NCBI GenBank assembly: GCA_947468275.1
Contig: CANIKO010000010.1
Span: 13,114 to 77,113, forward strand
DNA from: Bacteroidota bacterium
GTDB lineage: Bacteria; Bacteroidota; Bacteroidia; NS11-12g; UBA9320
DNA length: 64,000 bases
Reading direction: 5' to 3'
The position numbers were made by a program, and so were the translations under genes. The notes under the pieces were generated by a model, which searched no databases, was not told where the DNA came from, and saw only the letters and a list, made by a program, of their open reading frames with translations. Shown one piece after another: positions 9,241 through 59,153 of this stretch (position 1 is the stretch's first letter; each line of letters starts with the position of its first letter).

Positions 9241-11058
9241 ATGAGTAAAACATCAAAAAATATTCTACCTAAGAAGGAAAAACAGACGGACTACTTTCTG
9301 TTTTTACTCTTTTTTGCCACCATTTTGGTGTTTATTAAAGGCATGTCCTCAGATATTTTAAATTTTGATGATAATGAGTATTTTGAAAATTACCCGGAGG
9401 TAATAAATCTAAGTTTTGAAAGCGTTAAAAAATACTTTTCAAGCTACTATGTTTTGATGTATCAGCCACTGCCAATATTGAGCTTTGCACTTACTTATTC
9501 CTTTTTTAAACTCGATCCAACAGCCCATCATATTATTAATTTAGGACTTCATCTTTTCAATATTTATTTGGTTTATATTTTTATTGGGAAACTTACCAAT
9601 AAGTCGATTATTAAAAAAATTGTTGCTTTTTTGTTTGCACTTCACCCTTTGGCTGTTGAGGCCGTTATGTGGTTTTCGTGTCGAAGCAGCGGTATGTATG
9701 TTTGCTTTTATTTGCTGGGGTTACTTGCTTATTTAAACTATCAACAGGAGAGTAAATTGAAATATTTGATATTTTGCGGTATTTGGTTCGTGTTTTCTCT
9801 TTTGTCAAAAGCGCATGCGGTTACTTTTCCTTTGGCCTTGATGGTTATTGATATTTTTATTTATAAAATTTCTATTGGAAAAAAACTAATTTTAAGTAAA
9901 ATTCCTTTTTTAATGCTCTCGCTTTTCTTTGGTATAATAACATTGCTCAACAAAGACACTGCCAACAATATCACTTACAGTGTAGCCAATTATTCTATAT
10001 TTGATTATTTCTTCTTACTAAACTATGAAATTTTATGGTATTTTTTAAAAGTTGTTTTGCCTACTAGTTTGGCTCCTATTTATGTTTATCCTCCTAAAAT
10101 GGAGGGTTTATTGCCAACCATATACTATTTGGCACCAATAATTATAGGGGCATTGGTTTATTTAGTTTATAAAAATTTTAAATCCCGTTCTTATGTTGCA
10201 TTCGGCATCTTATTGTTTTTTGCAATATTATCTGTAAGCCTTCAAATTTTGCCGTCACGCCAAGTGATTGTGGCCGACCGATATAGTTATTTACCCAATA
10301 TTGGTCTGTTTTTTATTATAGCAAATCTTTATGCCGAATGGGCGGAAGGAAAAATAAATTCCTTAAAAAAAATAAAAGGAAAACAGTATTTGCTGTATTT
10401 TTTAGCTTTTGTTTTAATGATTTTGTCATTTAAACAGGTAGGAATTTGGAAAAGTAATATGACTCTGGCCGACAGAATCATAGAATCTAATCCTGAAACA
10501 GATTACATAGGACGAGCATATGGAATACGAGCTAATTATAAAAAGGATGTTATAAAAGATGTAAATGCTGCACTTGTTGATTATCAAAAAGCATTGGATT
10601 TGGATTCAACCGACTGGATTGCTAGCTATCAGGCCGGGTTGATTTACAAATCGCTTGGTGATAACTCAAAAGCTATTGATTATTTTAACAAAGCCCACAA
10701 GAGCGATATGGAAAACCCTATGCCTTTGTGCGATATCGGGGTGATTCAACTAGAAATTAAAAATTACGATTTAGCTTTAAAATTTGCTGATTCAGCAATT
10801 AAGGTTTATCCCAATTCAGCAAAAGGTTTAAATTTAAAGGCGGTATGTTTGTTAAATTTAGGAAACGCTATGGATGCAGAAAGGTTTTTTACAAAAGCAA
10901 TTTTAGCCAACCCAAATTATACCGAAGCTATTAAAAACAGAGGTATTGTGCGGTTAAAAAATCTTAATAATAATGACGGTGCTTGTGCTGATTTTAGAAA
11001 AGCCGCTGAATTAGGGGAGCCCGGAATGGACTTAATATTGAAAGATTACTGTAATTAA
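9241..11058 (+). CDS. Polytopic membrane protein with C-terminal TPR repeats (PMT/TMTC-like architecture)
   Basis: ~400 aa with multiple hydrophobic helices followed by TPR-like repeats (KALDLDSTDWIASYQAGLIYKSLGDNSKAIDYFNKA...). Confidence 0.6.
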   Translation: MSKTSKNILPKKEKQTDYFLFLLFFATILVFIKGMSSDILNFDDNEYFENYPEVINLSFESVKKYFSSYYVLMYQPLPILSFALTYSFFKLDPTAHHIINLGLHLFNIYLVYIFIGKLTNKSIIKKIVAFLFALHPLAVEAVMWFSCRSSGMYVCFYLLGLLAYLNYQQESKLKYLIFCGIWFVFSLLSKAHAVTFPLALMVIDIFIYKISIGKKLILSKIPFLMLSLFFGIITLLNKDTANNITYSVANYSIFDYFFLLNYEILWYFLKVVLPTSLAPIYVYPPKMEGLLPTIYYLAPIIIGALVYLVYKNFKSRSYVAFGILLFFAILSVSLQILPSRQVIVADRYSYLPNIGLFFIIANLYAEWAEGKINSLKKIKGKQYLLYFLAFVLMILSFKQVGIWKSNMTLADRIIESNPETDYIGRAYGIRANYKKDVIKDVNAALVDYQKALDLDSTDWIASYQAGLIYKSLGDNSKAIDYFNKAHKSDMENPMPLCDIGVIQLEIKNYDLALKFADSAIKVYPNSAKGLNLKAVCLLNLGNAMDAERFFTKAILANPNYTEAIKNRGIVRLKNLNNNDGACADFRKAAELGEPGMDLILKDYCN

Positions 11059-12306: not shown

Positions 12307-12744
12307 TTATAAAATGTTTTCTTTGTCTAACAAATAAAGCAATCCAAGCTTATACCCTTCCAATCCCAAGCCTGAAATATTTCCTTTGCAGGCTCCCAAC
12401 AGCAAATCATGGTGGCGAGCCGTTTCACGATTGTAAATATTAGAAATATGAATACCTAAGACGGGTGATTTAATAGATTTTACAGCATCGGCAATAGCTA
12501 CGCTGGTGTGGCTATAGCCTCCGGCATTTAGTAAAATACCGTCCATTTCAAATCCCCATTCCTGTATTTTATTAATTAATTCTCCTTCAATATTACTTTG
12601 AAAATAGTGTACTACTGTTGTGTCCTTAAACTGGCTTTTAAGTTCCTTAAAGTAATCTTCAAAGGATTTATCTCCATAAATTTCCGGTTCGCGTTTGCCC
12701 AATAGATTAAGGTTGGGGCCATTTATGATTCCTATTTTTTTCAA
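12307..12744 (-). CDS. aroQ: Type II 3-dehydroquinate dehydratase
   Basis: (TTG-start) MKKIGIINGPNLNLLGKREPEIYG... canonical AroQ N-terminus; 145 aa. Confidence 0.9.
   Translation of the reverse strand: MKKIGIINGPNLNLLGKREPEIYGDKSFEDYFKELKSQFKDTTVVHYFQSNIEGELINKIQEWGFEMDGILLNAGGYSHTSVAIADAVKSIKSPVLGIHISNIYNRETARHHDLLLGACKGNISGLGLEGYKLGLLYLLDKENIL
12675..12743. repeat. Direct repeat copy 1 (aroQ 5' end, functional copy); partner at 13295-13363
   Basis: 69 bp, ~5 mismatches to 13295-13363: gttcgcgtttgcccaa[t/g]agattaaggttggggccatttatgattcctatttttttca. Confidence 0.85.
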
Positions 12745-12809: not shown

Positions 12810-13058
12810 ATGATTTCAGATTATTTAAATGCTGCTATGCATCTAGCCAAATATGAATTTCTTCCAAACGACAAATTGTATTATGGCGAGATTGATGAGT
12901 TTAAAGGGCTTTATGCGAGTGCTACCAATTTAGAATTATGCCGGGATGAATTGATGTCAACTCTTGAGGATTGGGTGCTTTTCAGCATTCATAAAAATCT
13001 GCCATTACCAATTATAAATAATCTTAACTTGCAAATTAAGGATTTGGCAGATGCCTGA
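12810..13058 (+). CDS. hicB: Putative HicB-like antitoxin (UPF0150-like)
   Basis: 82 aa, overlaps downstream HicA gene by 8 bp; weak similarity to HicB/UPF0150 small antitoxins. Confidence 0.45.
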   Translation: MISDYLNAAMHLAKYEFLPNDKLYYGEIDEFKGLYASATNLELCRDELMSTLEDWVLFSIHKNLPLPIINNLNLQIKDLADA

Positions 13059-13275
13059 TTTTGGAAATATTTCCAGAAAGGACTTAATAAAGGCCTTGCA
13101 ATTACTCGGTTTTGAAGGTCCGTTTTCAGGTGGAAAACATCAATTTATGTTGAAAAGCGGATTGCGGCTTACCATTCCCAATCCCCATCAGTCAGACATT
13201 GGAATAGATTTGCTCAATAAAATTTTAAAACAAGCAGATATTTCAAAAATAGAATGGAGAAATTTAAAACTTTAA
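13051..13275 (+). CDS. hicA: HicA (YcfA-like) mRNA-interferase toxin
   Basis: 74 aa; LLGFEGPFSGGKHQFMLKSGLRLTIPNPHQSDIGIDLLNKILKQADIS matches the HicA G-(S/K)-H...IP.H....IG..L...ILKQ pattern. Confidence 0.65.
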   Translation: MPDFGNISRKDLIKALQLLGFEGPFSGGKHQFMLKSGLRLTIPNPHQSDIGIDLLNKILKQADISKIEWRNLKL

Positions 13276-13294: not shown

Positions 13295-13363
13295 CATAAA
13301 TCTCTAGTTCGCGTTTGCCCAAGAGATTAAGGTTGGGGCCATTTATGATTCCTATTTTTTTCA
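13295..13363. repeat. Direct repeat copy 2: remnant duplicate of aroQ 5' end (would encode VKKIGIINGPNLNLLGKRELEIYDL*)
   Basis: Near-identical to 12675-12743; reading frame stops after ~25 codons. Confidence 0.85.
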
Positions 13364-13690
13364 CTTGTCTCCTTTTTCTTTAGCTTTTTTCTTTAGCAAC
13401 TTTTTTATTAATTCCGATTGTTCAGCAACTAATTTAATAAGATATTTTAAAGTTGTTTTGTCTTCCTTTTCTAGCTCATTTATGGGATTAAAATCATCAA
13501 TAAAACTATCAAATTCCTCCTTTGTTATTTTTAATGCTGTAAATATTTCACTTAGTTTTTCATCATTTATAACGATTCTGTGTTCCAAATCTGAATATGC
13601 TTTTTGCGATATACCCAATTTAAGAGCTATATAGTCTTGAGAAAAATCTCCTTGTCGTCTTATTTTACGAAGTGTTTCGCCGTGGTGCAT
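13361..13690 (-). CDS. XRE-family helix-turn-helix transcriptional regulator
   Basis: 109 aa; LRKIRRQGDFSQDYIALKLGISQKAYSDLE HTH_3 motif; C-terminal Lys-rich tail. Confidence 0.7.
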   Translation of the reverse strand: MHHGETLRKIRRQGDFSQDYIALKLGISQKAYSDLEHRIVINDEKLSEIFTALKITKEEFDSFIDDFNPINELEKEDKTTLKYLIKLVAEQSELIKKLLKKKAKEKGDK

Positions 13691-13698
13691 ATTTGCTT

Positions 13699-13813
13699 GG
13701 GTATAAGTTAGAAGTAAAACTACTAACTTAGAAGTTATCCAGCTAGCTTATGCCAAAAATAAACTATTTACTTTGTTCTTGTATTGCAATACAAAAAATC
13801 AAATGCCTTGAAC
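13699..13813 (+). promoter_or_regulatory. Repeated leader element R, copy 1 (contains perfect palindrome TTGTATTGCAATACAA at 13779-13794)
   Basis: 115 bp ~93% identical to 15781-15897; lies in the divergent region between XRE regulator and Cys-rich protein gene. Confidence 0.6.
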
Positions 13814-13853
13814 AAATGATAGGCATTAAAAAAAATTTAAATTAAATACAAAA

Positions 13854-14393
13854 ATGAAAAGATTATTTAAACTCTTTGTTATAAGCAGTTTCTTATTATT
13901 CTCTTCGAATTCGTACTCAAGGGCAATTGGGACATTGATTAATGGTGTCCCAACAGTATCAGTAACAAATGAAGAATTTCAAACTCAATTGAATCTTCTG
14001 TCAAGCTGCACTTGTGGTATTTCAAATATTAACCTTGTTAGCACCTCAATAAGCTATAATCCTTCATCAGGAGGATTATTAAAACTGTCGTTTACGTGCA
14101 ATATAGCCAATGAGGTAGGGTTAATGAGAGTCAATATTACTAAGGAATTATCTTATGATAGTGGTAATAACGAATTCCATGTAATAAACGGTGGTGCAAG
14201 TAGAACTTGTATTGGTAAAAATTGTCTAAGTCGTTGTGACGTTGAAGGAGTAGGCTGTACCCCATGTGGTAGAGCCGACAATACTGAGATGCCCGCAACT
14301 TGCACAATGGCAACAGCTGAACAAGAAGGATGTATCTGGGGTTGTCTAGGAACGCTTTTTTTTGGCTGGTTAATTAGTTTATTTTGTTGCTAA
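13854..14393 (+). CDS. Secreted cysteine-rich protein (13 Cys) with hydrophobic C-terminal tail ending in CC
   Basis: Signal peptide MKRLFKLFVISSFLLFSSNSYS; C-terminal third TCIGKNCLSRCDVEGVGCTPCG...CTMATAEQEGCIWGCLGTLFFGWLISLFCC. Confidence 0.6.
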   Translation: MKRLFKLFVISSFLLFSSNSYSRAIGTLINGVPTVSVTNEEFQTQLNLLSSCTCGISNINLVSTSISYNPSSGGLLKLSFTCNIANEVGLMRVNITKELSYDSGNNEFHVINGGASRTCIGKNCLSRCDVEGVGCTPCGRADNTEMPATCTMATAEQEGCIWGCLGTLFFGWLISLFCC

Positions 14394-14453
14394 GTTTATT
14401 CTTGAGGGATACAATATCTTTCAAAGTTCTTTCTATTTCAACGTTAAAATTTT

Positions 14454-15581
14454 ATGATAAGAAAAATCTCTCTTTTTTTAGTTAACACTATACTGAGCTA
14501 CTTCCTTTCAGATATAGCTTTTTCTCAAAATATTAGAGAAGTAGAAATAAGAAATCATAATTATTTTAGTTCTACTAATCAAGTCATAGAAATTAAATAT
14601 ACATCAAAAACGAGAGATAATGCTAATTCCATCACAAGGCGTTATTTATTAAATTTAGAGAGCCTTAATAAAGGTTCTCTAAATTTAAATTATGTTGAAA
14701 ATAACTCTAAACTATATTTTAAATTTGTTAATAATGACTTGTATTTCAAACATCCTGATAGCATTAACTATATATTATTTGAACCAATAAATAAAAAAAG
14801 GAAGCCACCAAGTAATGTTTTTTTTTTAAAATATCTGCCTTTGTCTTGCACTTCCTTTTTTTTAAAAAATAGTTTTGAATCAGAGGATAGTAATTTTCAA
14901 ACTTGCGCCGGTGACACTTTTATTTTGGAACAAGTATCAAAGAAATTAGAAGTTGTACGAAAATTATACCTTGACAAAAATTTGCAGATTTTTAAAACAG
15001 AATATACTAGTACAGATTCAAATAGCCTTCAAGAAAAATGGCAATATGAATATAAAATATATAAAAATATTGAATTGAGTCAACTGGCAGATTCATTAAA
15101 ATTTGGCCCATTTAATAAAGAAAATTTTATAAAGAATAGTTATATTAATAAAGAAAGTACTATAATTTATGACGGCAAGACACATGTTCCATTGACAAAT
15201 AAAAAAACACTAATCCTTGATACAACTAAAATTAAATATTATATAATTGACTTATGGTATATAGGCTGCAAACCATGCAGTATGTTAAGACCTTATCTTG
15301 AAAAAATTTACACGAATATCGATACTTCAAAAGCAATTATGTTAGGATATAACGAATTTGATATTATGGAGGATATTAACACATATTTAAAAAGAAAAAA
15401 TTTTCAAATTCCAGAAATTGATAACTCTTCATTTTATTTGGAACAATTTCATACAAATATGCACCCTACCGTTCTTATCCTTGATAAAAAATTCAAGGTG
15501 ATAGAGACTTATGTTGGATATTCTACTTTAAATATTCTTAAAATTAGAACATTTCTCAAAGCAAAGAAATTGTTTTTGTGA
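14454..15581 (+). CDS. Secreted DUF4369-like + TlpA-like thioredoxin-fold thiol-disulfide oxidoreductase (CKPC active site)
   Basis: Signal peptide; C-terminal ~130 aa LILDTTKIKYYIIDLWYIGCKPCSMLRPYLEKIY...HPTVLILDKKFKVIETYVGY fits TlpA/AhpC-TSA fold with CxxC. Confidence 0.6.
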   Translation: MIRKISLFLVNTILSYFLSDIAFSQNIREVEIRNHNYFSSTNQVIEIKYTSKTRDNANSITRRYLLNLESLNKGSLNLNYVENNSKLYFKFVNNDLYFKHPDSINYILFEPINKKRKPPSNVFFLKYLPLSCTSFFLKNSFESEDSNFQTCAGDTFILEQVSKKLEVVRKLYLDKNLQIFKTEYTSTDSNSLQEKWQYEYKIYKNIELSQLADSLKFGPFNKENFIKNSYINKESTIIYDGKTHVPLTNKKTLILDTTKIKYYIIDLWYIGCKPCSMLRPYLEKIYTNIDTSKAIMLGYNEFDIMEDINTYLKRKNFQIPEIDNSSFYLEQFHTNMHPTVLILDKKFKVIETYVGYSTLNILKIRTFLKAKKLFL

Positions 15582-15626
15582 TAAAGACAAACTCGTTAGC
15601 ACATTTCTTGTAAAAATGCAATCCAA

Positions 15627-15786
15627 TGTCACCTATCTTTGCGGCAATGCGGCACATAGCATTTCTCCTTTTTACTTTCCCTCTTCTTTTGTTGGCACAA
15701 AACAAAGAACCTATTACTATTAATAATGCCGATTATCTGGATTTTAATAAAAACTATGCCAATGCCGAGCGGTTAGTAGTGGTATA
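15627..15786 (+). pseudogene. Duplicated 5' fragment of the OstA-like gene at 17429 (MSPIFAAMRHIAFLLF...NKNYANAERLVVV*)
   Basis: ~165 bp (15615-15780) ~88% identical to 17418-17582; frame terminates inside repeat R copy 2. Confidence 0.75.
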
Positions 15787-15897
15787 AGTTAGAAGTAAAA
15801 ACTACTAACTTAGAAGTTATCCAGCTAGCTTATGCCAAAAATAAACTATTTTCTTTGTTCTTGTATTGCCATACAAAAAAAAGGAAGAGCCTTGAAC
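15781..15897 (+). promoter_or_regulatory. Repeated leader element R, copy 2 (imperfect palindrome TTGTATTGCCATACAA at 15861-15876)
   Basis: Aligns to 13699-13813 with one 1-bp indel and a divergent 8-bp patch. Confidence 0.6.
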
Positions 15898-15934
15898 CTT
15901 TTAGATGGGCGTTAAAAATTTAAAAAAAATTATT

Positions 15935-16654
15935 ATGAACTTTTTTAAAAAATTATCTATACCCTTTCTTCTTTCTTTTACCCTAATTTTTACAGAATGT
16001 AAGAAAGAAGCTATCACTGATGTAAATTACTCTGAAATTAAAACTCCTGAACAACTGCTTGATTCCCCAAATGATCCTATAAATGAAAATATGTATTATG
16101 TAAAGGATTTTAATTTTCATTTGGATGGAGTTCCTGTGGCATATGAAACAATAGATTCGCTTTTTGATAATATATTGTACTCGGATTTTCCTGACACATT
16201 AAATGTATTTTGCTTTACAAATCTTGCTGCTTTTGATGATTACTTAACAGGAAATCCTAATAAAGCAGATGTATTAAAGGATATAAATGATATGGATAGT
16301 ATTGCGGCATTAATTCCTGACTCTTTAGATGATGAAATGAAATCTCCTGTAAAGGTAATCCCAGGTCAAATTGCACTTCTAAATGGGTCGTATTCGATTT
16401 CTGGTTTTGATATGCCAACTCCAACCACTAATGGAGACGGATTTACATCATGGACGCCTAAACTTAATCTTGGAAGTATGAATAATCGTGTAACTGGAAT
16501 TACTTTTTGGGCAATTACTGGTTCATTTTCGGTTTGGTGTACAAAGAAAAATTTCAAAGGAATGAAAAATTTCTATTGGGGATTTCCCTTTTTTGGAGGA
16601 AGATATATTTTAACAGATGTTAGATGGAACAATAATTTCATGTCTGTTTATTAG
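15935..16654 (+). CDS. Hypothetical lipoprotein
   Basis: MNFFKKLSIPFLLSFTLIFTEC lipoprotein signal; no recognised domain. Confidence 0.5.
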   Translation: MNFFKKLSIPFLLSFTLIFTECKKEAITDVNYSEIKTPEQLLDSPNDPINENMYYVKDFNFHLDGVPVAYETIDSLFDNILYSDFPDTLNVFCFTNLAAFDDYLTGNPNKADVLKDINDMDSIAALIPDSLDDEMKSPVKVIPGQIALLNGSYSISGFDMPTPTTNGDGFTSWTPKLNLGSMNNRVTGITFWAITGSFSVWCTKKNFKGMKNFYWGFPFFGGRYILTDVRWNNNFMSVY

Positions 16655-16717
16655 GGTTATAGATAATTTATAGTATTAAAAGTTAATGTGTAAATTGGCA
16701 TTGTAAATAAAAGTGTA

Positions 16718-17359
16718 ATGACTAAGGTAAAAAAAACAGTATTATTTTTTACAATTATTTTTCAATTTATCGCAATGAGGAGTTTTTGTAATGATACTTC
16801 TAATCTTAAAAAGTCCCAATTAAAAACCAAAAATTTTTACATTGGAATTCTGCTTGCACCTGCATATTTAGGTGGCTATGAGCAAAAATCTTTAGGAAAA
16901 AAATCAGGCCATATACCTTTTTTGTATAATCTAGGAAGTATTTTTTCTGAATACACTATCCTTAATAGGTATTCAGTTTTTGCAGGTTTTTCCTACGGTT
17001 ATAATTACTTCAGAGACACTATTAATGTCGGAAGCCTTGGTGGAACTTGTGGATTAAGATATAATATTCCACTTACAACAAAAAAGAAAAAGGAAGAAAA
17101 TAAACCAACATTACTTTATGCGCAAATTGGGCTTGGTTACACTAAAGGTTATTATTATAATGCCCCTAATTTAATAAGAATAAACAGACAAATAGAATGT
17201 TTTGGTCTAAACTTAGGTGTGAGTTTTATCCCATCTAAATTGTTTAAAAAAGCAAATTCTAATTTTATTATTGATTATTCAGTTGTCAAACCTTTTTATA
17301 ATGTGAAAAATAAAGAAGATCAATTTTTCGGTGGATTTGGAATTAAGTATAAGATTTAA
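16718..17359 (+). CDS. Putative outer-membrane beta-barrel protein
   Basis: Signal peptide, alternating aromatic/Gly-rich strands (GFSYGYNYF, GLGYTKGYYYN), C-terminal GGFGIKYKI. Confidence 0.4.
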   Translation: MTKVKKTVLFFTIIFQFIAMRSFCNDTSNLKKSQLKTKNFYIGILLAPAYLGGYEQKSLGKKSGHIPFLYNLGSIFSEYTILNRYSVFAGFSYGYNYFRDTINVGSLGGTCGLRYNIPLTTKKKKEENKPTLLYAQIGLGYTKGYYYNAPNLIRINRQIECFGLNLGVSFIPSKLFKKANSNFIIDYSVVKPFYNVKNKEDQFFGGFGIKYKI

Positions 17360-17363
17360 TCTA

Positions 17364-17402
17364 AAGAAAAGCTTACAATTTTTTGTAAGCTTTTCTTTTT
17401 TG
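17364..17402 (+). terminator. Rho-independent terminator
   Basis: Perfect 13-bp stem gaaaagcttacaa/ttgtaagcttttc, 4-nt loop, T-run. Confidence 0.7.
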
Positions 17403-17428
17403 AATATTGCTTTTTTAAATCCAATGCA

Positions 17429-18934
17429 ATGTTTCCTATCTTTGCCGCAATGCGGATACTAGCATTTCTTATTTTTTGTTTTCCGGTTCTTTTGTTGGCA
17501 CAAGACAAAGAACCCATTACTATTAACAACGCCGATTATCTGGATTTTAATAAAAACTATGCCAATGCTGAGCGCTTGGTAGGCCATGTGAGTATGAGCC
17601 AAGGCAATATGACCCTAACCTGCGACAGTGCCTGGTTTTGGAAAGATGAAAACAAAATGGAAGCGTTTGGTCATGCGTTTTTAAACCAATCGGGAGGAAC
17701 CATGGTGTGGAGCGACTACATGTTGTATAACGGCAATACCAAAATGGCCAGCGCCCAGCGCAATGTGAGAATGACTGACGGAAAAATGAGCCTAACCACA
17801 GATGCCATTCAATACGATGTAACCAATAAAATAGCCTATTATACCACCGGTGGAAATATTAAAGATGGCGAAAATACCATGACCAGCCGCTCGGGAAGTT
17901 ATTATTCCAAAAGCCGGGAGTATTTTTTTAAAGGAAAAATAAAATTGGTAAACCCCGAATATACAATGACAAGTGATACCTTGAATTATAACGGAAATAC
18001 AGAAACCGCTTATTTCTTTGGGCCAACGTATATAACAAGTACCGATAATCTTCTTTTTTGCAACTATGGCTGGTATGATACCAAAAAAAATACCTGTCAG
18101 TTTAGCAAACGAGCCTATATATTGAGTAAGGAAAACCGAATTGATTCAGACAGTTTTTTATACAATCGCAATACGGGCATTGGTCGGGCATTTGGAAATA
18201 TTACCTTGACCGATACGGTTCAAAAAATTGTAATTAAAGGCAAAAAAGGAATTCACAAGCGCTTTGAAAAAACTACTTTGGTTAGCGGGAATGCTATAGC
18301 CTTTAAAAAACTAGAAGATGATTCTCTGTTTATAAAAGCCGATTATTTTTTTGATAAACTGGATACTGCCAGCAAAAAAAGAACTTTAGCAGCTTATGGT
18401 GGTGCCAAAATTTTTAAACCTGATTTGCAAGGAATGGCGGATAGTTTAAGTTATTCTTTAACCGATTCGGTCATTCGGTTTTTTAAAGAACCTGTACTAT
18501 GGAACGAAGCCAATCAAACCACCGGCGATACTATTTTTATTTTTCAGAAAGGAAAAACCATTGACAGAATGGTGGTGTTGCAAAATGCAATGGTGGTAAT
18601 GGAAGATGCCCCGGGATTATACAATCAGATAAAAGGCAAAAAACTGTATGGATTGTTTGCAAAAAACAAATTGTACAGGGTAAATGTGCGTGGCAACGGG
18701 CAAAGTGTGTATTATGCCAAAGAAAATGAAAATAAATATTCGGGTGTAAATTATGTGGAATGCACCAATATGATTATAGCCATTGATTCTAATAAGGTTA
18801 AAAAAGTAACTTTTTTGGTGTCGCCCAAAAGCACCTTTTATCCTATTGATAAATTTCCGGCCGAACGGGCCAAACTTCGGGGGTTTAGCTGGCTGATAGA
18901 AAAACGTCCCAAACGGAAAGATTTCGAGTTTTAG
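17429..18934 (+). CDS. OstA-like (LptD N-terminal/LptA-fold repeat) periplasmic protein
   Basis: 501 aa; signal peptide then repeated OstA_N-like beta-jellyroll segments (MTLTCDSAWFWKDENKMEAFGHAFLNQ...); Bacteroidetes 'OstA-like protein' family. Confidence 0.65.
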   Translation: MFPIFAAMRILAFLIFCFPVLLLAQDKEPITINNADYLDFNKNYANAERLVGHVSMSQGNMTLTCDSAWFWKDENKMEAFGHAFLNQSGGTMVWSDYMLYNGNTKMASAQRNVRMTDGKMSLTTDAIQYDVTNKIAYYTTGGNIKDGENTMTSRSGSYYSKSREYFFKGKIKLVNPEYTMTSDTLNYNGNTETAYFFGPTYITSTDNLLFCNYGWYDTKKNTCQFSKRAYILSKENRIDSDSFLYNRNTGIGRAFGNITLTDTVQKIVIKGKKGIHKRFEKTTLVSGNAIAFKKLEDDSLFIKADYFFDKLDTASKKRTLAAYGGAKIFKPDLQGMADSLSYSLTDSVIRFFKEPVLWNEANQTTGDTIFIFQKGKTIDRMVVLQNAMVVMEDAPGLYNQIKGKKLYGLFAKNKLYRVNVRGNGQSVYYAKENENKYSGVNYVECTNMIIAIDSNKVKKVTFLVSPKSTFYPIDKFPAERAKLRGFSWLIEKRPKRKDFEF

Positions 18935-32985: not shown

Positions 32986-34017
32986 TCAACCCCATCCTTG
33001 TGCCTTAATATCAAACTGACTTCCTGATGGAGTAATCAATTGGCATATATTGGCTTGATTGGTTGCAAAACCAATGACAGAGATGTCCATATTGGATTTT
33101 ATTTTTTCAAAATCGGTTTGGTCAATGGTAAATAATAGTTCAAAATCTTCGCCACCATTTAAGGCACACATAGTGGCATCCAAATTAAATTCACTGGCCA
33201 TTTCAAGGGTTTGTGTATCTACAGGAAGTTTTTCTTCATAAATAGAAAAACCAACATTGGATTGCAATGCCAAATGTTTCAGTTCAGACGCCAAACCATC
33301 ACTAATATCAATCATTGAAGTTGGTTTTATATTTAACTCGGCCAAGAGTTCAATAACGTCCTTACGAGCTTCGGGTTTAAGTTGTCGGCCTACTATGTAA
33401 TCGTAACCTTCTAAATCGGGCTGCATCTCTGGGTTGGCTAAAAAAACGCGTTTTTCGCGTTCCATGAGCTGATGGCCTAGGTAAGCGCCACCTAAATCGC
33501 CAGTTACACAAAGTAAATCATTGACTTTGCAACCTGCTCGAGTTACATATTTATCCGGCGCCACTTCACCAATAGCGGTTATTGAAATGGTGAGTCCCTG
33601 TGGCGAAGTGTTGGTATCCCCACCAATTAAATCCACTTCATATTTTTCGCATGCAAGGTATATTCCGGTGTAAAATTCTTCCAAAGCTTCCAAAGTGTAT
33701 TTACTGGATAAGGCAATAGAAAGAGTTATAAATTTTGGGATGGCATTCATGGCATAAATATCACTGATATTAGCAACCACTGCTTTGTAGCCTAAATGTT
33801 TGAGAGGAGTGTAGGCCAAATCAAAGTTTATATTTTCTACCATCAAATCGGTAGTTATAACCTGCAATTTTTCAGAATTTGGTTTTAAAATAGCGGCATC
33901 ATCGCCAATACCTTTAATAATATTAGGGTTTTTGGGACTGTAATTTTCGGTTAGTTTTTTAATTAGGCCAAATTCGCCAAAAGATTCAAGCGTAGTTTTT
34001 GATGAGTTTTCAAACAT
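32986..34017 (-). CDS. thiL: Thiamine-monophosphate kinase
   Basis: 343 aa; PurM-like fold with ThiL N-terminal EFGLIKKL...GIGDDAAIL motif. Confidence 0.75.
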   Translation of the reverse strand: MFENSSKTTLESFGEFGLIKKLTENYSPKNPNIIKGIGDDAAILKPNSEKLQVITTDLMVENINFDLAYTPLKHLGYKAVVANISDIYAMNAIPKFITLSIALSSKYTLEALEEFYTGIYLACEKYEVDLIGGDTNTSPQGLTISITAIGEVAPDKYVTRAGCKVNDLLCVTGDLGGAYLGHQLMEREKRVFLANPEMQPDLEGYDYIVGRQLKPEARKDVIELLAELNIKPTSMIDISDGLASELKHLALQSNVGFSIYEEKLPVDTQTLEMASEFNLDATMCALNGGEDFELLFTIDQTDFEKIKSNMDISVIGFATNQANICQLITPSGSQFDIKAQGWG

Positions 34018-49379: not shown

Positions 49380-50039
49380 ATGAAAAAAATATTTACTCTT
49401 ATTGGACTGTTAATTTGTTTGAATAGTTACTCGCAATCTGTATTTGTGCCGGCATCGGCCTACAATTCTCATTTTTGTTCTGAATTTGATATTACTGTTC
49501 ACAGTAAATTTACCAATAAGTTTGTTACTAATAAACTTGAATTTATAAGAATTCAAAAAACGGTAACCTCTAATTGGACCACTGCCTATTGTGATTGTGA
49601 ATTGTGTCACGATATAAATACAGATACTGGAAAATTTTCTGTTGCCATTGGCCAAACCTGTGAAACTTCAGCGCATTTTTATCCTGATGGAGCCAAAGGT
49701 ATAGGGTATATAAAAATTAAAGTTTTTCCTGAAGGCGACCCTGCTAATTTTGTAATAGGTGAATACAGTGCTAGCTGCTGGGGTGTTTCGGCCACGTTTA
49801 TCGAAAACCAAAAATTAGCAGTTTCCCCAAATCCTGCCAATACAGTTTTAAACATTGGTTTTGGTGCGGGAGGTGAGTATACCATCAGTATTATAAACAC
49901 CGAAGGAAAAGTAATTGTAAATGAAAAAGTAGAAAATTTAGTAAACACTTTAGATATTTCTAACTTTAACTCAGGCTTATATTCCGTAAAAATAGAAAGT
50001 GCCGGAAAGGTATTTTATTCTAAATTTATAAAGCTTTAA
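49380..50039 (+). CDS. Small secreted protein with T9SS type A C-terminal sorting domain
   Basis: Signal peptide; CTD VSPNPANTVLNIGF...GLYSVKIESAGKVFYSKFIKL. Confidence 0.65.
   Translation: MKKIFTLIGLLICLNSYSQSVFVPASAYNSHFCSEFDITVHSKFTNKFVTNKLEFIRIQKTVTSNWTTAYCDCELCHDINTDTGKFSVAIGQTCETSAHFYPDGAKGIGYIKIKVFPEGDPANFVIGEYSASCWGVSATFIENQKLAVSPNPANTVLNIGFGAGGEYTISIINTEGKVIVNEKVENLVNTLDISNFNSGLYSVKIESAGKVFYSKFIKL
49965..50039 (+). repeat. 75-bp near-identical repeat (CTD 3' end), partner at 54570-54644
   Basis: 1 mismatch over 75 bp while upstream CTD sequence is divergent. Confidence 0.85.
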
Positions 50040-50668: not shown

Positions 50669-50729
50669 CGTTTAATAGAAAATCTTGGTTTGTCATTTGA
50701 CAATTACTCTGAATAAATTTATTCAATCT

Positions 50730-53700
50730 ATGCTTCGTTTTATCTGGGCGTTTTTATTAATATTTTTGATACAATTATGCCCTTTCAAATCAACAGCAGA
50801 AATAAATAAAATTTATGGAGATGCATCTTTAACCTATTTTAAATCTAATGCTGGACAGTGGGATAAAGATGTTCATTACAGGCTTATCAGTAATGGATAT
50901 GCAATTAGTTTTTTTAACAATAAAGTATCTTTTGCTATAAGCCGACAATCTGATGATAAGATACAAAATACTTTTAAAGAAAAATTAAAACTACCAGAAC
51001 TAGATTATTTAGTTTGGGAAATTGTCTTTGAAGGTTCTGAACACTGCATTCCAATTGGAGAAGGAAATATCCCTTCTATTTATCGTTTTTTTGGTAACGG
51101 TTCCTGTAATGGTAAAACTATAGATTTATTTAAAAAAATAGTTTACAAAAATATTTATCCTCAAACCGACCTCGTATTTTATGTTGATTCCAAAAAGCAA
51201 ATTAAATATGATTTTATTCTTCATCCTGGAGGCGATATTTCTAAAATTAAAATGAAATATAATGGAATTGAGGGCTTGAAATTAAATGAACACAACGATT
51301 TGAATATTAAAACGGTATGGGGTGATTTTAAAGAAAACACGCCTTTTTCTTTTCAACAAATTAATGGGCAAGAAATGATTGTAGATGTTAAATATTTTTT
51401 GGCCAATAATAATACATTAACTTTTGAATCTATTAAGGATTTGGATAGAACAAAAACTTTAATTATTGACCCTGTTCTATTAGACTGGAGTACCTATTTT
51501 TATGGAAATTCACGATTTAATATAGATAATTCAAATCAAATTGTACAATATGTTGGTGGGGTAGATATTGACTCTAAAGGGTACACGTATGTTGCAGGAA
51601 CAACCAATCAAGATTTTCCAAAAATACCAGGGTTACACAACTCAAAACCAGGTAATTTTCCTTCAAGTAAGACGGATGCTTATTATTGTAAAATATCTCC
51701 AAAAGGCGATTCGTTTTTGTTTTTTAATTATTTGGGAGGAGCTAATAATGATATGGTTAATACGCTTCATATTAATTCAAAAGAAGAAGCTGTAATAACA
51801 GGTTATGGAGGACCTGGATTCCCATTCACTAAAGGAGCTTTGGATACTAATTACGGAGGTTTTGTAACAACATTTAATAGCACAGGCGATTCCATAAGAT
51901 TTTCAACATTCTTTCATCCATTTTCGGGAAATAATGCAATTATTACAGAATCGGGCGAAGTAATTATTGCAGGGGCGTGTTCAGGAGGAATGTTAGTTAC
52001 TTCGGGTGCTTATCAAAATAAATATCAAGGAGGATCAGTTGATGGTTTTGTTGCAAAAATAAAGTCAGATGGTAAAAGTCTATCTTTTTCAACCTATATC
52101 GGTGGAGATGATATGGAAGAAATTTATGGTATTAGTATTAATTCAAAAGAAGATATTTATTTAGTAGGTTACACACGCTCAAACAATTTCCCAATAAATA
52201 CATCTAATAATTCTTTTAAATACTTAAAAGGTGGTGCAGATGGATTTTTACTAAAATTGGATAATAGCGGCTCAAAAGTTCTTTTTAGCGATGTTATTGG
52301 GGGTAGCTATGATGATTTTTTGCAAAGTATTTTTATAAATCCCAAAGAAGAAATATTTGTTTCAGGTTTTACCAATTCTAATAATTTTCCAGTAAGTGTT
52401 TATCCTATTGCACATCAAGCTTCAAACGCAGGTAAATATGATCTTGTTGCAATGAAGTTTTTACCCAATGGTTCTAACTACAAGTATTCAACCTACATTG
52501 GAGGAAGTGATAATGAATATTGTAATAATTGGATTAATGGCATGATTACCCAAATAGCAGTAAATGCAAAGGATGAAGCGATAATTATGGGGGTTAGCCA
52601 ATCTAACGATTTTCCGGTGACAAGTGATGCGCTTCAAAAAACGAATAAGGCAAAAGCGAAAATACAAGAACCGCTTAATTTAACATTAACAAAGTTATCC
52701 TTTGGAGGTGATAAATTGATTTATAGTACTTATTTTGGAGGAGGTTATTCCGATAATTTATTATCTGGACGAATTAAACGATTTAATTGTGTCACAAATA
52801 TTGTAATCGCAGGAGCCACAATGTCACGCGATTTCCCTACAACTACTGGAAGTATATACCCAAATGCACCAAAGGATACTTTATTTGGCAATGGAAAACA
52901 TTTCACATACGCTTATGTGAGTTTCATTTCCAAATTTTCAGATACACTAAAAGTTGAGAAACCAAGTTTTGGCAATAGAACTAAAACTCGGTGCAATGAT
53001 TTTTTAGAGATATTGGACGGATTAAATCAGGGAAGTTATAGGCGGTGGAGCACGGGTGACAGCAGCCAGTTTCTTTTGGTAAATAAAGCGGGCACCTACT
53101 GGGTAGCAACCACCTATGGCTGCGATACAATTCGCGACAGCATTACCATTATTAACCCAATTAATAAAGCTAATTTTACGATTTTGGATACGGCCCAATG
53201 CCTAGCCGGAAATAGTTTTACATTTAAAGAAACTACACAATTTAAAAATACAAAGCATAAAGAAAGTAGTTGGTATTTTGATGATAGCACCAGTATAATG
53301 GATACTATTGCCAAAAAATCATTTACCACACCCGGCATTCATTTTATAAAACTAGTATCTCAAAGTACCGCTGATTGCATGGATTCCATCACCACAACAG
53401 TTCATGTGTACCCCAATACACAACCCAATTTTGTTATTAACGATACATCTCAATGTTTAAAAAATCAAAACTTTAATTACACGAACACCTCTACCGACAC
53501 CGGCAAAATAAGCTACCAATGGGATTTGGGCGACCAAACCTTTAGCAACCAAAAAAATATTTCAGCTAAAACCTATCTAAAAGACAGCAGCTATGTTATT
53601 AAACTTATAAGCACCACCGACAAAAATTGTGAGGATACAGCTACCAAAATAATCTCGATAAAACCAAGCCCCGTGGCTGATTTTAAATGGGATATAGCCT

Positions 53701-54644
53701 GTAGCCGAACCGTCACAAATTTTAAATACACCGGTTCAAAACCTATTCAATCATTTCACTGGAATTTTAACAACGAAGCCACTTCCACCCTCGAAAATCC
53801 CTCCCATAAATTTGCCGCCGCAGGAACCTCAATCTCAACCTTAACCTTAACCTCAAGCAACGGATGCTCTGATACGCTTAAAAAATCCATTGACATAAAA
53901 CCCCAATCGCAAGCCGATTTTACGACCCAAGATGTGTGTGAAAACACCACCACAGATTTTGTAAATACATCCAAAGATGCCACAAGCTATAATTGGAAAT
54001 TTGGAGATGGAAATACCTCCAATCTTCAATCCCCCAAACACCAATATCAAATCAGCGGAAAATCTACTACCTTTAATGTTACCTTGGTAGCCATAGTAGC
54101 CAATGGTTGTTCCGATTCCATAAGCAAAGCCACCACAGTAAATGCCAATCCAAGCGCAGATTTTAGCTATACCACCGGCGGCAAGCAAGTAAATTTTACA
54201 GCTACCGAAACCGCAGCTACCCTATACCAATGGACTTTTGGCGATGGAGGAACCGTCAATACCGCAACCCCAAAAACCACTTACAACTACACCAAATTTC
54301 CTTCAGGCAAATACACCGCTTGCCTCAAAGTTATCAATGCCGCCAACTGTTTTTCAGAATCGTGCAAGGAAATTGTTATTACAGGTGGCATTGCAAACCT
54401 CTCAGAAAAAAGCTTTAAAATTTACCCCAATCCCAACAATGGAAGTTTTACCATTGAAATTGAAAATCCTGAAAACGATGGAATAATTAGTATTTACAAT
54501 ACGATAGGGATGCAAATTAAAACTATAGAAACCAATTCATCCCAAAGCCAATATTTAATAAAATTAGATTTTAACTCAGGATTATATTCCGTAAAAATAG
54601 AAAGTGCCGGAAAGGTATTTTATTCTAAATTTATAAAGCTTTAG
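50730..54644 (+). CDS. Large secreted protein with SBBP-like beta-propeller repeats, multiple PKD-like domains and T9SS type A C-terminal sorting domain
   Basis: Likely start MLRFIWAFLL at 50730; repeated ...FTxxxxCxxxxFxFxNTS...WxFGDG... PKD signatures; CTD KIYPNPNNGSFTIEI...GLYSVKIESAGKVFYSKFIKL. Confidence 0.75.
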   Translation: MLRFIWAFLLIFLIQLCPFKSTAEINKIYGDASLTYFKSNAGQWDKDVHYRLISNGYAISFFNNKVSFAISRQSDDKIQNTFKEKLKLPELDYLVWEIVFEGSEHCIPIGEGNIPSIYRFFGNGSCNGKTIDLFKKIVYKNIYPQTDLVFYVDSKKQIKYDFILHPGGDISKIKMKYNGIEGLKLNEHNDLNIKTVWGDFKENTPFSFQQINGQEMIVDVKYFLANNNTLTFESIKDLDRTKTLIIDPVLLDWSTYFYGNSRFNIDNSNQIVQYVGGVDIDSKGYTYVAGTTNQDFPKIPGLHNSKPGNFPSSKTDAYYCKISPKGDSFLFFNYLGGANNDMVNTLHINSKEEAVITGYGGPGFPFTKGALDTNYGGFVTTFNSTGDSIRFSTFFHPFSGNNAIITESGEVIIAGACSGGMLVTSGAYQNKYQGGSVDGFVAKIKSDGKSLSFSTYIGGDDMEEIYGISINSKEDIYLVGYTRSNNFPINTSNNSFKYLKGGADGFLLKLDNSGSKVLFSDVIGGSYDDFLQSIFINPKEEIFVSGFTNSNNFPVSVYPIAHQASNAGKYDLVAMKFLPNGSNYKYSTYIGGSDNEYCNNWINGMITQIAVNAKDEAIIMGVSQSNDFPVTSDALQKTNKAKAKIQEPLNLTLTKLSFGGDKLIYSTYFGGGYSDNLLSGRIKRFNCVTNIVIAGATMSRDFPTTTGSIYPNAPKDTLFGNGKHFTYAYVSFISKFSDTLKVEKPSFGNRTKTRCNDFLEILDGLNQGSYRRWSTGDSSQFLLVNKAGTYWVATTYGCDTIRDSITIINPINKANFTILDTAQCLAGNSFTFKETTQFKNTKHKESSWYFDDSTSIMDTIAKKSFTTPGIHFIKLVSQSTADCMDSITTTVHVYPNTQPNFVINDTSQCLKNQNFNYTNTSTDTGKISYQWDLGDQTFSNQKNISAKTYLKDSSYVIKLISTTDKNCEDTATKIISIKPSPVADFKWDIACSRTVTNFKYTGSKPIQSFHWNFNNEATSTLENPSHKFAAAGTSISTLTLTSSNGCSDTLKKSIDIKPQSQADFTTQDVCENTTTDFVNTSKDATSYNWKFGDGNTSNLQSPKHQYQISGKSTTFNVTLVAIVANGCSDSISKATTVNANPSADFSYTTGGKQVNFTATETAATLYQWTFGDGGTVNTATPKTTYNYTKFPSGKYTACLKVINAANCFSESCKEIVITGGIANLSEKSFKIYPNPNNGSFTIEIENPENDGIISIYNTIGMQIKTIETNSSQSQYLIKLDFNSGLYSVKIESAGKVFYSKFIKL

Positions 54645-58492: not shown

Positions 58493-59148
58493 GACCACTA
58501 CTTTATGGTTTAACACTATCATTAGTTGTATTAACAAATTGCAAGCCTCAAGAGGATAGCACCCCGCAATTTACTTTTAAAGGCCAAATACTTAATGCTA
58601 CAACCAACGAAGTTCCTGTAGGACTTTCGGTTACTCTTCAAGCCACATCATCTCCTGATTTGTTCACAAAATTTAAAAAAGAAATACTGGGAACCGCCAT
58701 TACTGATAGTATGGGGAGGTTTTCTATTACTTATAAGAAAACTAGTTTACCCATTTTAACACTATTATCTCAATTTCTTACTTATAATGATCTTCCAATA
58801 AATAAAAATGTGGATACTATTTTCTATAGAAGTACAAAAGGTACAATTTCTTTTATTTTAACAGCAATTAACCCATTAAAAATTGAAGACACTTTATATT
58901 TAGCTATTCCAGCATTAGATATTGGAAAAGATGTAACCTTAGAAAAAATTTCAGGGCCATTTCCTCAAAAAAAGATTATTCAATATCGAACTCTCACGGA
59001 TAGGGGTAGTTTACAATATTTCTGGGCAATAGGATATACTCAATGGGATAGTGTAATGAGGTTTTCACATCTTTATTCCAAGAATAAATTAATTTACAAT
59101 ATGCGCGGAGACCCATATATAGATACAATAAAGATAAAATATAGGTAG
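58489..59148 (+). CDS. Lipoprotein, copy 1 (candidate cognate immunity/partner protein of upstream T9SS cargo)
   Basis: ATGA overlap with upstream stop; lipobox LVVLTNC; 219 aa; paralog at 59339-59998. Confidence 0.55.
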   Translation: MRPLLYGLTLSLVVLTNCKPQEDSTPQFTFKGQILNATTNEVPVGLSVTLQATSSPDLFTKFKKEILGTAITDSMGRFSITYKKTSLPILTLLSQFLTYNDLPINKNVDTIFYRSTKGTISFILTAINPLKIEDTLYLAIPALDIGKDVTLEKISGPFPQKKIIQYRTLTDRGSLQYFWAIGYTQWDSVMRFSHLYSKNKLIYNMRGDPYIDTIKIKYR

Positions 59149-59153
59149 CCAAG

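Follow-up and report, generated by a model that had tools for sequence, protein, structure and literature searches.

A repeated candidate control region beside an XRE-family regulator gene and two stacked secreted-protein operons between aroQ and ostA in a Bacteroidota bacterium

HTH_3 dimers of the Cro/CI family typically bind inverted repeats. Autoregulated repressors of this type, such as phage repressors, the controller (C) proteins of restriction-modification systems with their C-boxes and SinR-type proteins, have palindromic operators in a divergent promoter region. Putative mobile promoters were defined as upstream segments of 50-100 nt with at least 80% identity in front of non-homologous coding sequences of the same genome (Matus-Garcia, Nijveen and van Passel 2012, PMC3488235). 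For the effector-immunity modules of the Vibrio cholerae type VI secretion system (T6SS) and for Rhs/CDI orphan arrays, homology-facilitated illegitimate recombination was proposed (Kirchberger et al. 2017, PMC5361080); in this route cassette arrays form by homologous recombination on one side and an illegitimate join on the other, and displaced remnants stay behind (PMC5361080). In integrons, unrelated small gene units are stacked promoter-proximally at one chromosomal site.

The locus analysed here lies in a window of 64 kb, the whole stretch of DNA that was studied, and resembles each of these systems in part. As in the Cro/CI type, the gene of a small HTH_3 protein is divergent from the presumed target genes, a 14-16-bp palindrome overlaps both predicted core promoters, and more repeated sites lie near the regulator gene. 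Unlike those systems, it has no phage or restriction-modification context, its cargo consists of orphan secreted proteins, its predicted promoters are of the TAnnTTTG kind and its operator is a candidate. The two copies of the control region, R and R', are putative mobile promoters by the operational definition, but the route of R' is traceable, as recombination at a hotspot apparently brought it in together with a cassette, and R' is a complete operator set parted from the regulator gene. As in the T6SS and Rhs arrays, a conserved flank would serve as anchor while the far end joins illegitimately, the displaced occupant is kept, and repeated events would build an array; here, however, the place of toxin 3' tips or immunity genes as remnants is taken by 5' stubs of the housekeeping genes aroQ and ostA. 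The stacking of unrelated small units is integron-like, but intI, attC and attI are lacking, each unit has its own promoter region, and the junctions lie inside core genes. The regulatory module is of an ordinary type and its evolutionary history is instructive; the locus belongs to known kinds of system. We consider it probable that R is a bidirectional promoter/operator shared by the XRE gene and a secreted-protein operon, that R' is an imported copy lacking a regulator gene, and that the XRE protein could control both of the stacked cassettes in trans. The features are as follows.

12307-12744, minus strand: aroQ, type II 3-dehydroquinate dehydratase, the left core gene (Pfam DHquinase_II, E=7e-49)
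12810-13275, plus strand: hicB-hicA toxin-antitoxin pair; hicB 12810-13058 (UPF0150, E=2e-24), hicA 13051-13275 (HicA_toxin, E=8e-11)
13295-13363, minus strand: aroQ 5' fragment of 69 nt (start codon and 22 codons), a stub between hicA and the XRE gene
13361-13690, minus strand: XRE-family HTH regulator of 109 aa (Pfam HTH_3)
13691-13853, no strand: R, the full XRE-cargo intergenic control region, with the repeated core at 13700-13798
13703-13734, no strand: direct-repeat boxes ATAAGTTAGAAG (13703-13714) and CTAACTTAGAAG (13723-13734), at a spacing of 20 bp, in the predicted XRE 5' UTR
13754-13761, minus strand: TATTTTTG, putative Bacteroidota sigma-A -7 box for XRE, predicted start site near 13749
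13768-13775, plus strand: TTACTTTG, one-mismatch -7-like box facing the cargo, predicted start site near 13780, within the palindrome
13779-13794, no strand: perfect 16-bp palindrome TTGTATTGCAATACAA, candidate operator, conserved in relatives
13854-15581, plus strand: cargo pair 1, a 179-aa Cys-rich signal-peptide protein (13854-14393) and a 375-aa protein (14454-15581)
15596-15779, plus strand: ostA 5' fragment, start codon at 15647, 46 codons, stop inside R'
15781-15934, no strand: R', orphan control-region copy, with boxes at 15784-15795 and 15805-15816
15836-15876: promoter-type elements of R', minus-strand TATTTTTG (15836-15843) and TTTCTTTG (15850-15857), and the palindrome variant TTGTATTGCCATACAA (15861-15876)
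15935-17359, plus strand: cargo pair 2, a 239-aa protein (15935-16654) and a 213-aa signal-peptide protein (16718-17359)
17429-18934, plus strand: ostA, OstA_2/LptD_N domain protein, the right core gene (Pfam OstA_2, E=2e-47)

Both copies of the repeat were found where the preliminary description had placed them. Over its coordinates (13699-13813 and 15781-15897) the identity was 91.5%, or 108 of 118 aligned columns; in the core, 13700-13798 against 15781-15880, it reached 97 of 100 aligned positions, ahead of unrelated downstream proteins, and it was 84% when the entire intervals of R and R' from XRE ATG to cargo ATG were compared. A 55-nt probe from R gave 0 chance matches in 100 shuffles. 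The search for further copies, which had been suggested along with the repeat, returned R and R' as the only two in the window when a profile of the control region was used, and the palindrome proved to be kept at the XRE loci of relatives. All matches of this profile lay upstream of XRE homologues or were orphan copies. The sequence on the right flank of R' (GGAAGAGCCTTGAACCTTTTAGATGGGCGTTAAAAA) recurs without any change in the XRE-linked region of the related locus L015.

The XRE reading frame, divergently oriented as had been described, starts at 13690, 9 nt from R. Residues 7-60 match HTH_3 (PF01381, E=6.6e-8) with 32.9 bits against a Pfam gathering score of 23, which places the protein in this family. 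A profile search with XRE collected 516 representative clusters at E<=1e-10, and the homologues P0002-P0009 are all divergent from secreted-protein or secreted-product operons. A scan of JGI metagenome contigs with an XRE profile found no relatives, and a PDB sequence search gave no match. A weak, sub-threshold resemblance to the RstR repressors of phages was also observed.

Counted from the XRE ATG, the control region has a fixed layout: two boxes stand at about +19 and +40, TAnnTTTG lies on the minus strand near +67, and the palindrome is centred at 98.5-101.5. The layout is common to the window, L019, L022 and L027, where the XRE proteins are only 36-38% identical, and L027 is an unrelated, rhomboid-linked locus with tyrosinase/T9SS cargo. 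Independent profile matches to the control region were obtained at L028 (E=3e-6) and L031 (E=5e-6), and the invariant alignment columns read TTTG-N5/6-GTATT..AATACA. The cargo and the segment from the palindrome to the cargo ATG are mosaic. As the layout is constant with respect to XRE and the cargo side varies, R is, as judged from these alignments, primarily a control region upstream of XRE that is conserved across loci, rather than a cargo-specific leader. The earlier view of R as a leader of the secreted-protein operons was therefore right about the repeat and wrong about its primary attachment. Recent recombination, and not selection, may account for much of the conservation seen among the aroQ-ostA loci. 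L027 is the sole fully independent locus with the palindrome.

The palindrome is perfect, as had been reported. In this AT-rich window five perfect 16-bp palindromes were observed against 2.7 expected, so that it is not significant alone and its weight comes from conservation elsewhere. It was found in the window in R and R' only. Among relatives it is kept in L007/L019, L022, L018, L015 (with one additional nucleotide at the centre) and L027 (centre swapped, TTGTATTCGAATACAA), and the changes across the loci of XRE homologues are limited to the central 2-3 nt. The R' site had been called degraded; it is not clearly so, since it differs by a single central change, at the place where homologous sites vary. 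Other loci depart further: the site of L028 is degenerate, L025 has no obvious one, the additional nucleotide of L015 would alter the half-site spacing for a rigid dimer, and L029 has a different palindrome (TGTAACGTTACA) with a recognition helix almost identical to that of the window XRE. A degenerate pattern of the palindrome core had 0 matches in viral contigs. The proposal of this site as a candidate operator holds up, as it is kept at a constant distance from the start codon beside XRE proteins of 36-38% identity, and we regard it as a credible candidate, centred at about -38 of the putative XRE promoter and lying over the predicted cargo start.

The boxes, which are TTTAGAGG-like, occur twice per control region and 20-22 bp apart in relatives (ATAAnTTAGARG twice). 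In L015, L019, L022, L027 and L031 their offsets from the XRE ATG are about +19 and +40, and in L028 they stand 10 nt further out, at +30 and +51. The second dyad of the preliminary description, TAAGTTAG with CTAACTTA, is present, but what relatives conserve is the direct repeat and not the dyad. More XRE homologues keep the boxes than keep the palindrome, and the boxes are an equally good candidate for the XRE binding site.

The -7 box of Bacteroidota sigma-A promoters, TAnnTTTG, spans -12 to -5 (PMC9723704). The suggested search for this motif found an exact TATTTTTG on the XRE strand in both R and R', by sequence a sigma-A promoter box with a predicted promoter role, and a minus-strand -7 box is at constant offset in L019, L022, L027 and L031. 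The box facing the cargo has TT for TA. Its TTTG is invariant 4-6 nt ahead of the palindrome in all aligned regions, and L029 has an exact TAATTTTG at this position; it may act as a promoter. A scan for sigma-70-type promoters and terminators gave results at shuffle level, the sigma-70 model being uninformative for this phylum.

Relatives show the aroQ-ostA site in several states. The site is empty in the close relative L006 (aroQ, 88 bp, ostA), hicBA is the sole insert in L008, and L007/L019 and L022 have XRE with other cargo there. The ostA 5' fragment of the preliminary description is real: 15596-15779 is 84% identical to 17399-17582, is most similar to L006-type ostA (88.5%) and keeps the promoter box TATCTTTG at 15634-15641. 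The same box precedes the intact gene (17437-17444), the true start of which is likely 17450. Sliding identity and informative sites showed the intact ostA to be a mosaic, L007-like from 17448 to ~17845 and L006-like in the remainder. Before ~17845, 22 informative sites were of L007 type and 8 of L006 type, and afterwards they were overwhelmingly of L006 type; this switch of lineage at ~17750-17850 is what a one-sided homologous crossover leaves. The join at 15780/15781 reads GCGGTTAGTAG followed by TGGTATAAG. The TTGGTA-like strings were found at all three of the places given before, and the partners have TTRGTA-like strings. Both partner strings are kept at the junction, which is thus no clean microhomology join, and the proposed crossover at TTGGTA is a possibility. 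The chance expectation for a 6-mer with one mismatch near the junction is ~0.07 as a rough estimate. Identical junctions were seen in at least 24 independent contigs carrying the same locus, and an assembly chimera was rejected for this reason.

The duplication of the aroQ 5' end and the hotspot context had been missed earlier. The aroQ stub is 94% identical to 12675-12743. L014 carries an 89%-identical XRE; the aroQ behind it is intact and overlaps it by 4 nt, as the stub does in the window, and the diagnostic CAAGAG is common to the stub and L014. Both aroQ copies have a private base in common, which is equally compatible with import, in-situ duplication and gene conversion.

Given these elements, we suggest the following course. 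The XRE gene would be transcribed from the minus-strand TATTTTTG with a 59-nt leader carrying both boxes, and the palindrome would lie near -38 of this promoter and also over the start of the weak cargo promoter TTACTTTG. Because it lies over both promoters, a dimeric XRE bound to it would act as a repressor of the cargo operon and also adjust the synthesis of XRE itself. R' would have arrived together with cargo pair 2 and a foreign (L007-like) ostA 5' end, by a homologous crossover within ostA (~17.75-17.85 kb) and an illegitimate join at 15780/15781, and the native ostA promoter with the first 46 codons would have remained as a stub. The position of hicBA between aroQ and the aroQ stub, which overlaps the XRE stop codon, suggests a parallel event on the aroQ side. 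The outcome would be cassettes stacked at the aroQ-ostA hotspot, with two cargo operons that share the same operator set, so that one XRE could control both in trans. Regulation of the second pair by the same XRE is plausible since R' holds all conserved elements. However, pair 2 need not depend on R', because it also lies downstream of the intact duplicated ostA promoter and a scan for terminators between the cassettes found none.

Other readings of the repeat were weighed against this one. The conserved core could be bound by another, possibly global, regulator, with XRE binding the boxes of its own leader or something else; we hold this to be unlikely, though not negligible. The wider occurrence of the boxes, including L028 and L031, speaks for it, as does the presence of the palindrome core, with no XRE close by, in L018 and in L013, a distant Bacteroidia genome where the core is just upstream of ostA. 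Comparison of recognition helices across XRE homologues did not discriminate between palindrome types, and their variation does not follow that of the palindrome. Yet a global regulon is a poor fit for a palindrome restricted to R and R' in the window, the distance to the XRE ATG is constant even at the unrelated L027, and inverted repeats are the typical targets of HTH_3 dimers. Alternatively, R could be a cis-acting RNA leader (an attenuator, a riboswitch or a stabilising 5' hairpin), the palindrome being an RNA hairpin. All variation falls in the would-be loop (A-to-C in R', one additional nucleotide in L015, GC-to-CG in L027), and the predicted cargo start would place the hairpin at the 5' end of the mRNA. 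Folding of the leaders and of R on both strands gave weak or inconsistent z-scores: -1.96 for the R leader and -2.66 for R 13700-13813, but +0.68 for the R' leader, which folds no better than shuffles. The stem is invariant and so offers no covariation, the palindrome-to-cargo-ATG segment is mosaic and variable, the 12-bp outer stem of R is missing in L015 and L019, the layout is tied to XRE, and the boxes have a DNA-helical spacing of 21 bp. Rfam at gathering level matched tRNA only in the window, and relaxing it to E<=10 for 13600-16000 added chance-level matches only. We hold an RNA leader to be quite improbable.

The sharp left edge of R' at the ostA break, the two duplications of gene 5' ends that flank the inserts, the mosaic left and right flanks that meet at the conserved core and the arrival of cargo genes as discrete units would all suit a small mobile element, similar to a MITE or an integron cassette, that inserts site-specifically into gene 5' ends and of which R is one end or the recombination site. 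We nevertheless judge this very improbable. There are two copies only, and the R 20-mer TTATCCAGCTAGCTTATGCC had 0 matches in genome contigs (185,579 species genomes) and in viral contigs; terminal inverted repeats and short target duplications are absent, as is an integrase or transposase in or beside the insert. In relatives, homology runs left from R into XRE, which makes the apparent end a limit of the duplication, and stubs of 69 and 184 nt with 94% and 84% identity are unlike target-site duplications. A MITE was rejected on the two copies at one locus and on the lack of inverted repeats of at least 40 nt in the window, and an integron on the lack of a recombinase gene between aroQ and ostA and of a shared repeat 3' of the cassettes. 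The nearest Phage_integrase gene, Xer-like and of 304 aa, is several kb away and is the sole one in the neighbourhood. Finally, the head-to-tail order of R, cargo, ostA 5' end and R', cargo, ostA 5' end in units of similar length (2082 and 1803 bp) could suggest an in-situ tandem duplication of one such unit followed by divergence. This is scarcely credible, as the cargo pairs have no detectable similarity, R and R' are 97% identical against 84% for the ostA copies, and the ostA 5' ends are from different lineages; the unequal divergence and the unrelated cargo effectively refute it.

With R as the shared promoter/operator and R' as its imported copy, the locus offers a natural example of regulon growth, in which an operator set is parted from its regulator and put before new genes, and two unrelated secreted-protein operons could fall under a single small XRE repressor. 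The aroQ-ostA hotspot of these uncultured, AT-rich lake Bacteroidota allows empty, single and multiple occupancy to be compared, and the aroQ and ostA stubs record the order of events. The practical value, a defined candidate operator and candidate promoters for a poorly studied phylum together with a set of orphan secreted proteins, is modest. A more speculative thought, to which we give little credence, is that the conserved core (TTTG and palindrome), besides being an operator, is the preferred crossover point of an integrase-less cassette-exchange system in these freshwater Bacteroidota. If so, shuffling of XRE and cargo sides would explain the orphan cores R' and L018 as well as the mosaic flanks of L015, L022, R and R', and a portable platform of regulator and operator would capture unrelated secreted-protein genes and stack them at the aroQ-ostA site in a functionally integron-like way.

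The statement that signal-peptide operons follow R and R' was borne out, as all four reading frames have hydrophobic signal-like N-termini by inspection; that of the 239-aa protein contains a Cys, and its longest reading frame runs from 15905. Pfam and NCBIfam searches with the cargo proteins of five loci gave nothing except a weak match of the 375-aa protein to a C-terminal thioredoxin/ResA-like CxxC domain, and pair 2 had no match in either. An 80%-identical copy of the 179-aa cargo gene adjoins the 89% XRE in L015, while no homologue of the 239-aa protein was found outside this organism and thus no donor locus was identified. An all-against-all BLASTP of the cargo proteins showed the cassettes to be mutually unrelated, and these orphan secreted proteins are probably related to niche or competition. 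Exact-protein look-ups of XRE, ostA and aroQ gave the same arrangement in every match, with no strain-level polymorphism seen. The GC content of the insert is 29.4%, against 36-39.5% in the flanking core genes.

The repeat R/R' exists, as the preliminary description had it at about 93% identity. Over the full extent first proposed identity is 91.5%, and over the core (R 13700-13798 against R' 15781-15880) 97 of 100 aligned positions are identical, the two sequences parting ways beyond the palindrome. An exact probe and a profile HMM both found only these two copies in the 64 kb window. The 16-bp palindrome is indeed perfect in R, and the degradation reported for R' amounts to a single mismatch, at the centre. 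Perfect palindromes of this length are not rare in the window (5 observed against 2.7 expected at 34% GC), so this one would be meaningless without outside support. The genes of the interval are arranged as follows:

12307-12744, minus strand: aroQ
12810-13275, plus strand: hicB-hicA
13295-13363, minus strand: copy of the aroQ 5' end (stub), 69 nt, 94% identical to 12675-12743
13361-13690, minus strand: XRE regulator (HTH_3), 109 aa, its stop overlapping the start of the aroQ stub (GTGA)
from 13700: R
13854-14393 and 14454-15581, plus strand: cargo pair 1, two signal-peptide ORFs, the second with a weak thioredoxin/ResA-like domain
15596-15779, plus strand: copy of the ostA promoter and first codons (stub), 84% identical to 17399-17582
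from 15781: R'
15935-16654 and 16718-17359, plus strand: cargo pair 2, two more signal-peptide ORFs
17429-18934, plus strand: full-length ostA (OstA_2)

The GC content of the inserted block is 29.4%, against 36-39.5% in the flanking core genes. At least 24 contigs assembled independently, the NCBI MAG GCA_947477415.1 among them, have the identical arrangement, and the locus is therefore not an assembly artefact.

Relatives (lake Bacteroidota) were gathered by searching species genomes and metagenomes with ostA, and every interval from an XRE start codon to the start codon of the divergent cargo was compared. The window and the relatives' loci L019, L022 and L027 have a common layout counted from the XRE ATG: two TTTAGAGG-like boxes spaced by 20-22 bp (about +19 and +40), a TAnnTTTG box on the minus strand at about +67, and the palindrome centre at 98.5-101.5. 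L031, where the contig ends before the palindrome, keeps the pair of boxes and the -7 box of the minus strand at unchanged offsets. The invariant columns of the alignment are TTTG, 5-6 bases, GTATT, 2-3 bases and AATACA. L027 is decisive for the layout, because its XRE is merely 36% identical, it lies at a different locus beside rhomboid genes and its cargo is a different one, a tyrosinase-type T9SS protein; a perfect TTGTATTCGAATACAA nevertheless stands at the matching distance from the XRE ATG. A profile of the control region matched XRE upstream regions outside the training set (L028, E=3e-6; L031, E=5e-6), and in the window and the relatives' loci every match covering the boxes and the -7 box belonged either to R' or to the upstream region of an XRE homologue. 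Hits to the palindrome core alone, which were weaker, came from L018 (E=0.004) and L013 (E=0.16), and one match in the window (33815-33892, E=4.6) is at chance level. The cargo proteins are unrelated from locus to locus, and the segment between palindrome and cargo ATG is a mosaic, being of the window-R type in L022 and of the R' type in L015, yet the L015 cargo is an R-type gene. Since the layout is kept with XRE while cargo and cargo side vary, the comparison indicates that R is the control region of the XRE gene and not, as had been proposed, a leader of secreted-protein operons, and that R' is a copy of this region without its regulator.

TAnnTTTG is the sigma-A -7 box of Bacteroidota, spanning -12 to -5 (PMC9723704). 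An exact match, TATTTTTG, is present on the XRE side (13761-13754, minus strand) and predicts an XRE transcript start near 13749, which would give a leader of 59 nt with both boxes inside and a palindrome centred near -38. On the opposite strand T(A/T)nnTTTG stands 4-6 bases ahead of the palindrome in every region compared, as TTACTTTG in R (13768-13775) and as an exact TAATTTTG in L029. If this string is the cargo -7 box, cargo transcripts would begin within the palindrome, and we infer that a single dimer bound there could obstruct the cargo promoter as well as adjust the promoter of the regulator. As R' retains every control element of R, the same XRE protein could act on it in trans, with two reservations. 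The orphan minus-strand promoter of R' would fire antisense into the ostA stub. In addition, the promoter of the stub is intact (TATCTTTG 15634-15641, start codon 15647) and lies upstream of cargo pair 2; no terminator-like site was found between them. In both copies of ostA the -7 box (TATCTTTG) falls between the first and second in-frame ATG (17429-17452; stub 15626-15649), so the true start is probably the second, at 17450 in the gene and 15647 in the stub. Transcripts would then probably be nearly leaderless.

A serious alternative is that another protein binds the palindrome, or that the boxes are the real XRE site. The boxes are conserved more widely, the palindrome centre is 1 nt longer in L015, the L028 site is degenerate, and L018 and the distant L013 possess the core with no XRE nearby. 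The reading of R as an RNA leader is weakly supported: the palindrome changes all fall in the would-be loop, but there is no Rfam match, covariation is absent and R' has no stable fold. A mobile element or integron-like site fails on copy number, on terminal repeats and on the lack of a recombinase, and in relatives the homology runs leftward into XRE. In-situ tandem duplication was also rejected, the cargo being unrelated and the divergence unequal. A further reading, of low probability, is that the conserved core itself is a crossover site of cassette exchange.

Several sites resembling the XRE control region were observed elsewhere. In L018 an orphan core, cGTATTGCAATACAA (1717-1730), preceded by TTGGTTTG, lies ahead of an unrelated two-gene secreted cargo adjoining ostA; no XRE or aroQ was found within 3 kb, and upstream there is a GC-rich stretch without coding sequence (about 1300-1560). 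In L013, a distant Bacteroidia MAG, a perfect TGTATTCGAATACA (9876-9889) lies 16 bp upstream of the start codon of ostA, in surroundings that lack an XRE homologue; its centre variant is that of the XRE-linked site in L027, and it may reflect either chance or a shared regulator. In L029 (2712-3902) and L030 the XRE homologue, P0009, is more distant. Small ORFs, an asparagine-synthase-like gene and a gene for a 182-aa protein are oriented divergently from it, a set that resembles a lasso-peptide-type cluster. L029 has its own palindrome, TGTAACGTTACA, directly after its exact TAATTTTG box.

The gap between aroQ and ostA is by these comparisons a hotspot that is empty, singly or multiply occupied depending on lineage, because in L006 (OstA 96% identical) the two genes are divergent direct neighbours with 88 bp between them, an empty site, L008 has hicBA only, and others carry XRE and cargo. 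L007 and L019-21 have an XRE 38% identical, a related control region and an unrelated two-gene cargo, followed by ostA, and L022-24 a different XRE with a cargo of three genes. In L014 an XRE 89% identical is followed by intact aroQ with the 4-nt overlap seen in the window's stub, and in L015 this XRE variant stands opposite a gene whose product is 80% identical to the 179-aa cargo protein. Variability reaches the other side of aroQ, since L017 has a different two-gene secreted-protein insert (955-2445) between a glycosyltransferase gene and aroQ. The hicA gene of L008 (9737-9958) has an apparent in-frame stop (CCTCATCAATAAGAT; CAATCAGAT in the window) and may be a pseudogene. An extra ~150 bp in L007 (8121-8274), perhaps a small insertion element or a structured insert, interrupts the ostA promoter region and contains the inverted repeat AATGCCCATT...AATGGGCATT.

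Full-length ostA has a mosaic structure. Between 17448 and about 17845, 22 informative sites side with the L007 lineage and 8 with L006, the first 100 nt being 98% identical to the L007 lineage and 89% to L006; beyond that point L006-type sites predominate overwhelmingly. The stub (15596-15779) is closest to L006 (88.5%). The simplest reading of mosaic and stub would be an import with one homologous and one illegitimate end: an L007-like donor would have supplied R', cargo pair 2 and the 5' part of ostA through homologous recombination within ostA and an illegitimate join at 15780/15781, leaving the native promoter and 46 codons as the stub. No donor sequence was found for cargo pair 2. TTGGTA, proposed earlier as the crossover point, does occur at all three places named for it, but the junction GCGGTTAGTAG/TGGTATAAG retains both partner strings. 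The duplication of the aroQ start region (12675-12743, 13295-13363), whose stub copy separates hicA from the XRE stop codon, had been overlooked. As in L014, this copy overlaps the XRE stop, it also has the CAAGAG variant of L014, and the hicBA-aroQ junction agrees with L008, which suggests an event parallel to that on the ostA side. Both aroQ copies share a private A (GGCCATTTATG) absent from all relatives, and for this reason the aroQ side may instead derive from in-situ duplication or gene conversion. The pattern at ostA and aroQ agrees with homology-facilitated illegitimate recombination, a process put forward for arrays of T6SS and Rhs genes (PMC5361080).

The locus is no new kind of system. 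Its regulator belongs to the HTH_3 family and has a common architecture, an HTH with a helix C-terminal to it (516 representative clusters, E<=1e-10); R/R' qualify as a putative mobile promoter as that term is operationally defined (PMC3488235), and the history of the locus resembles that of cassette displacement arrays. The novelty lies in this regulator/operator family with its orphan copy, and in the hotspot that these uncultured lake Bacteroidota have between aroQ and ostA.

Two other repeats were observed in the window. A 74-nt direct repeat of 99% identity (49965-50038, 54570-54643) forms the identical 3' ends, the last ~24 codons and stop, of the otherwise different genes 49380-50039 and 50685-54644; the encoded ending looks like a possible T9SS C-terminal sorting domain, and the repeat suggests recent gene conversion or module exchange. 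Tandem duplicated segments with a period of 850 bp (58294-59997, 73-86% identity) are probably paralogous genes in tandem.
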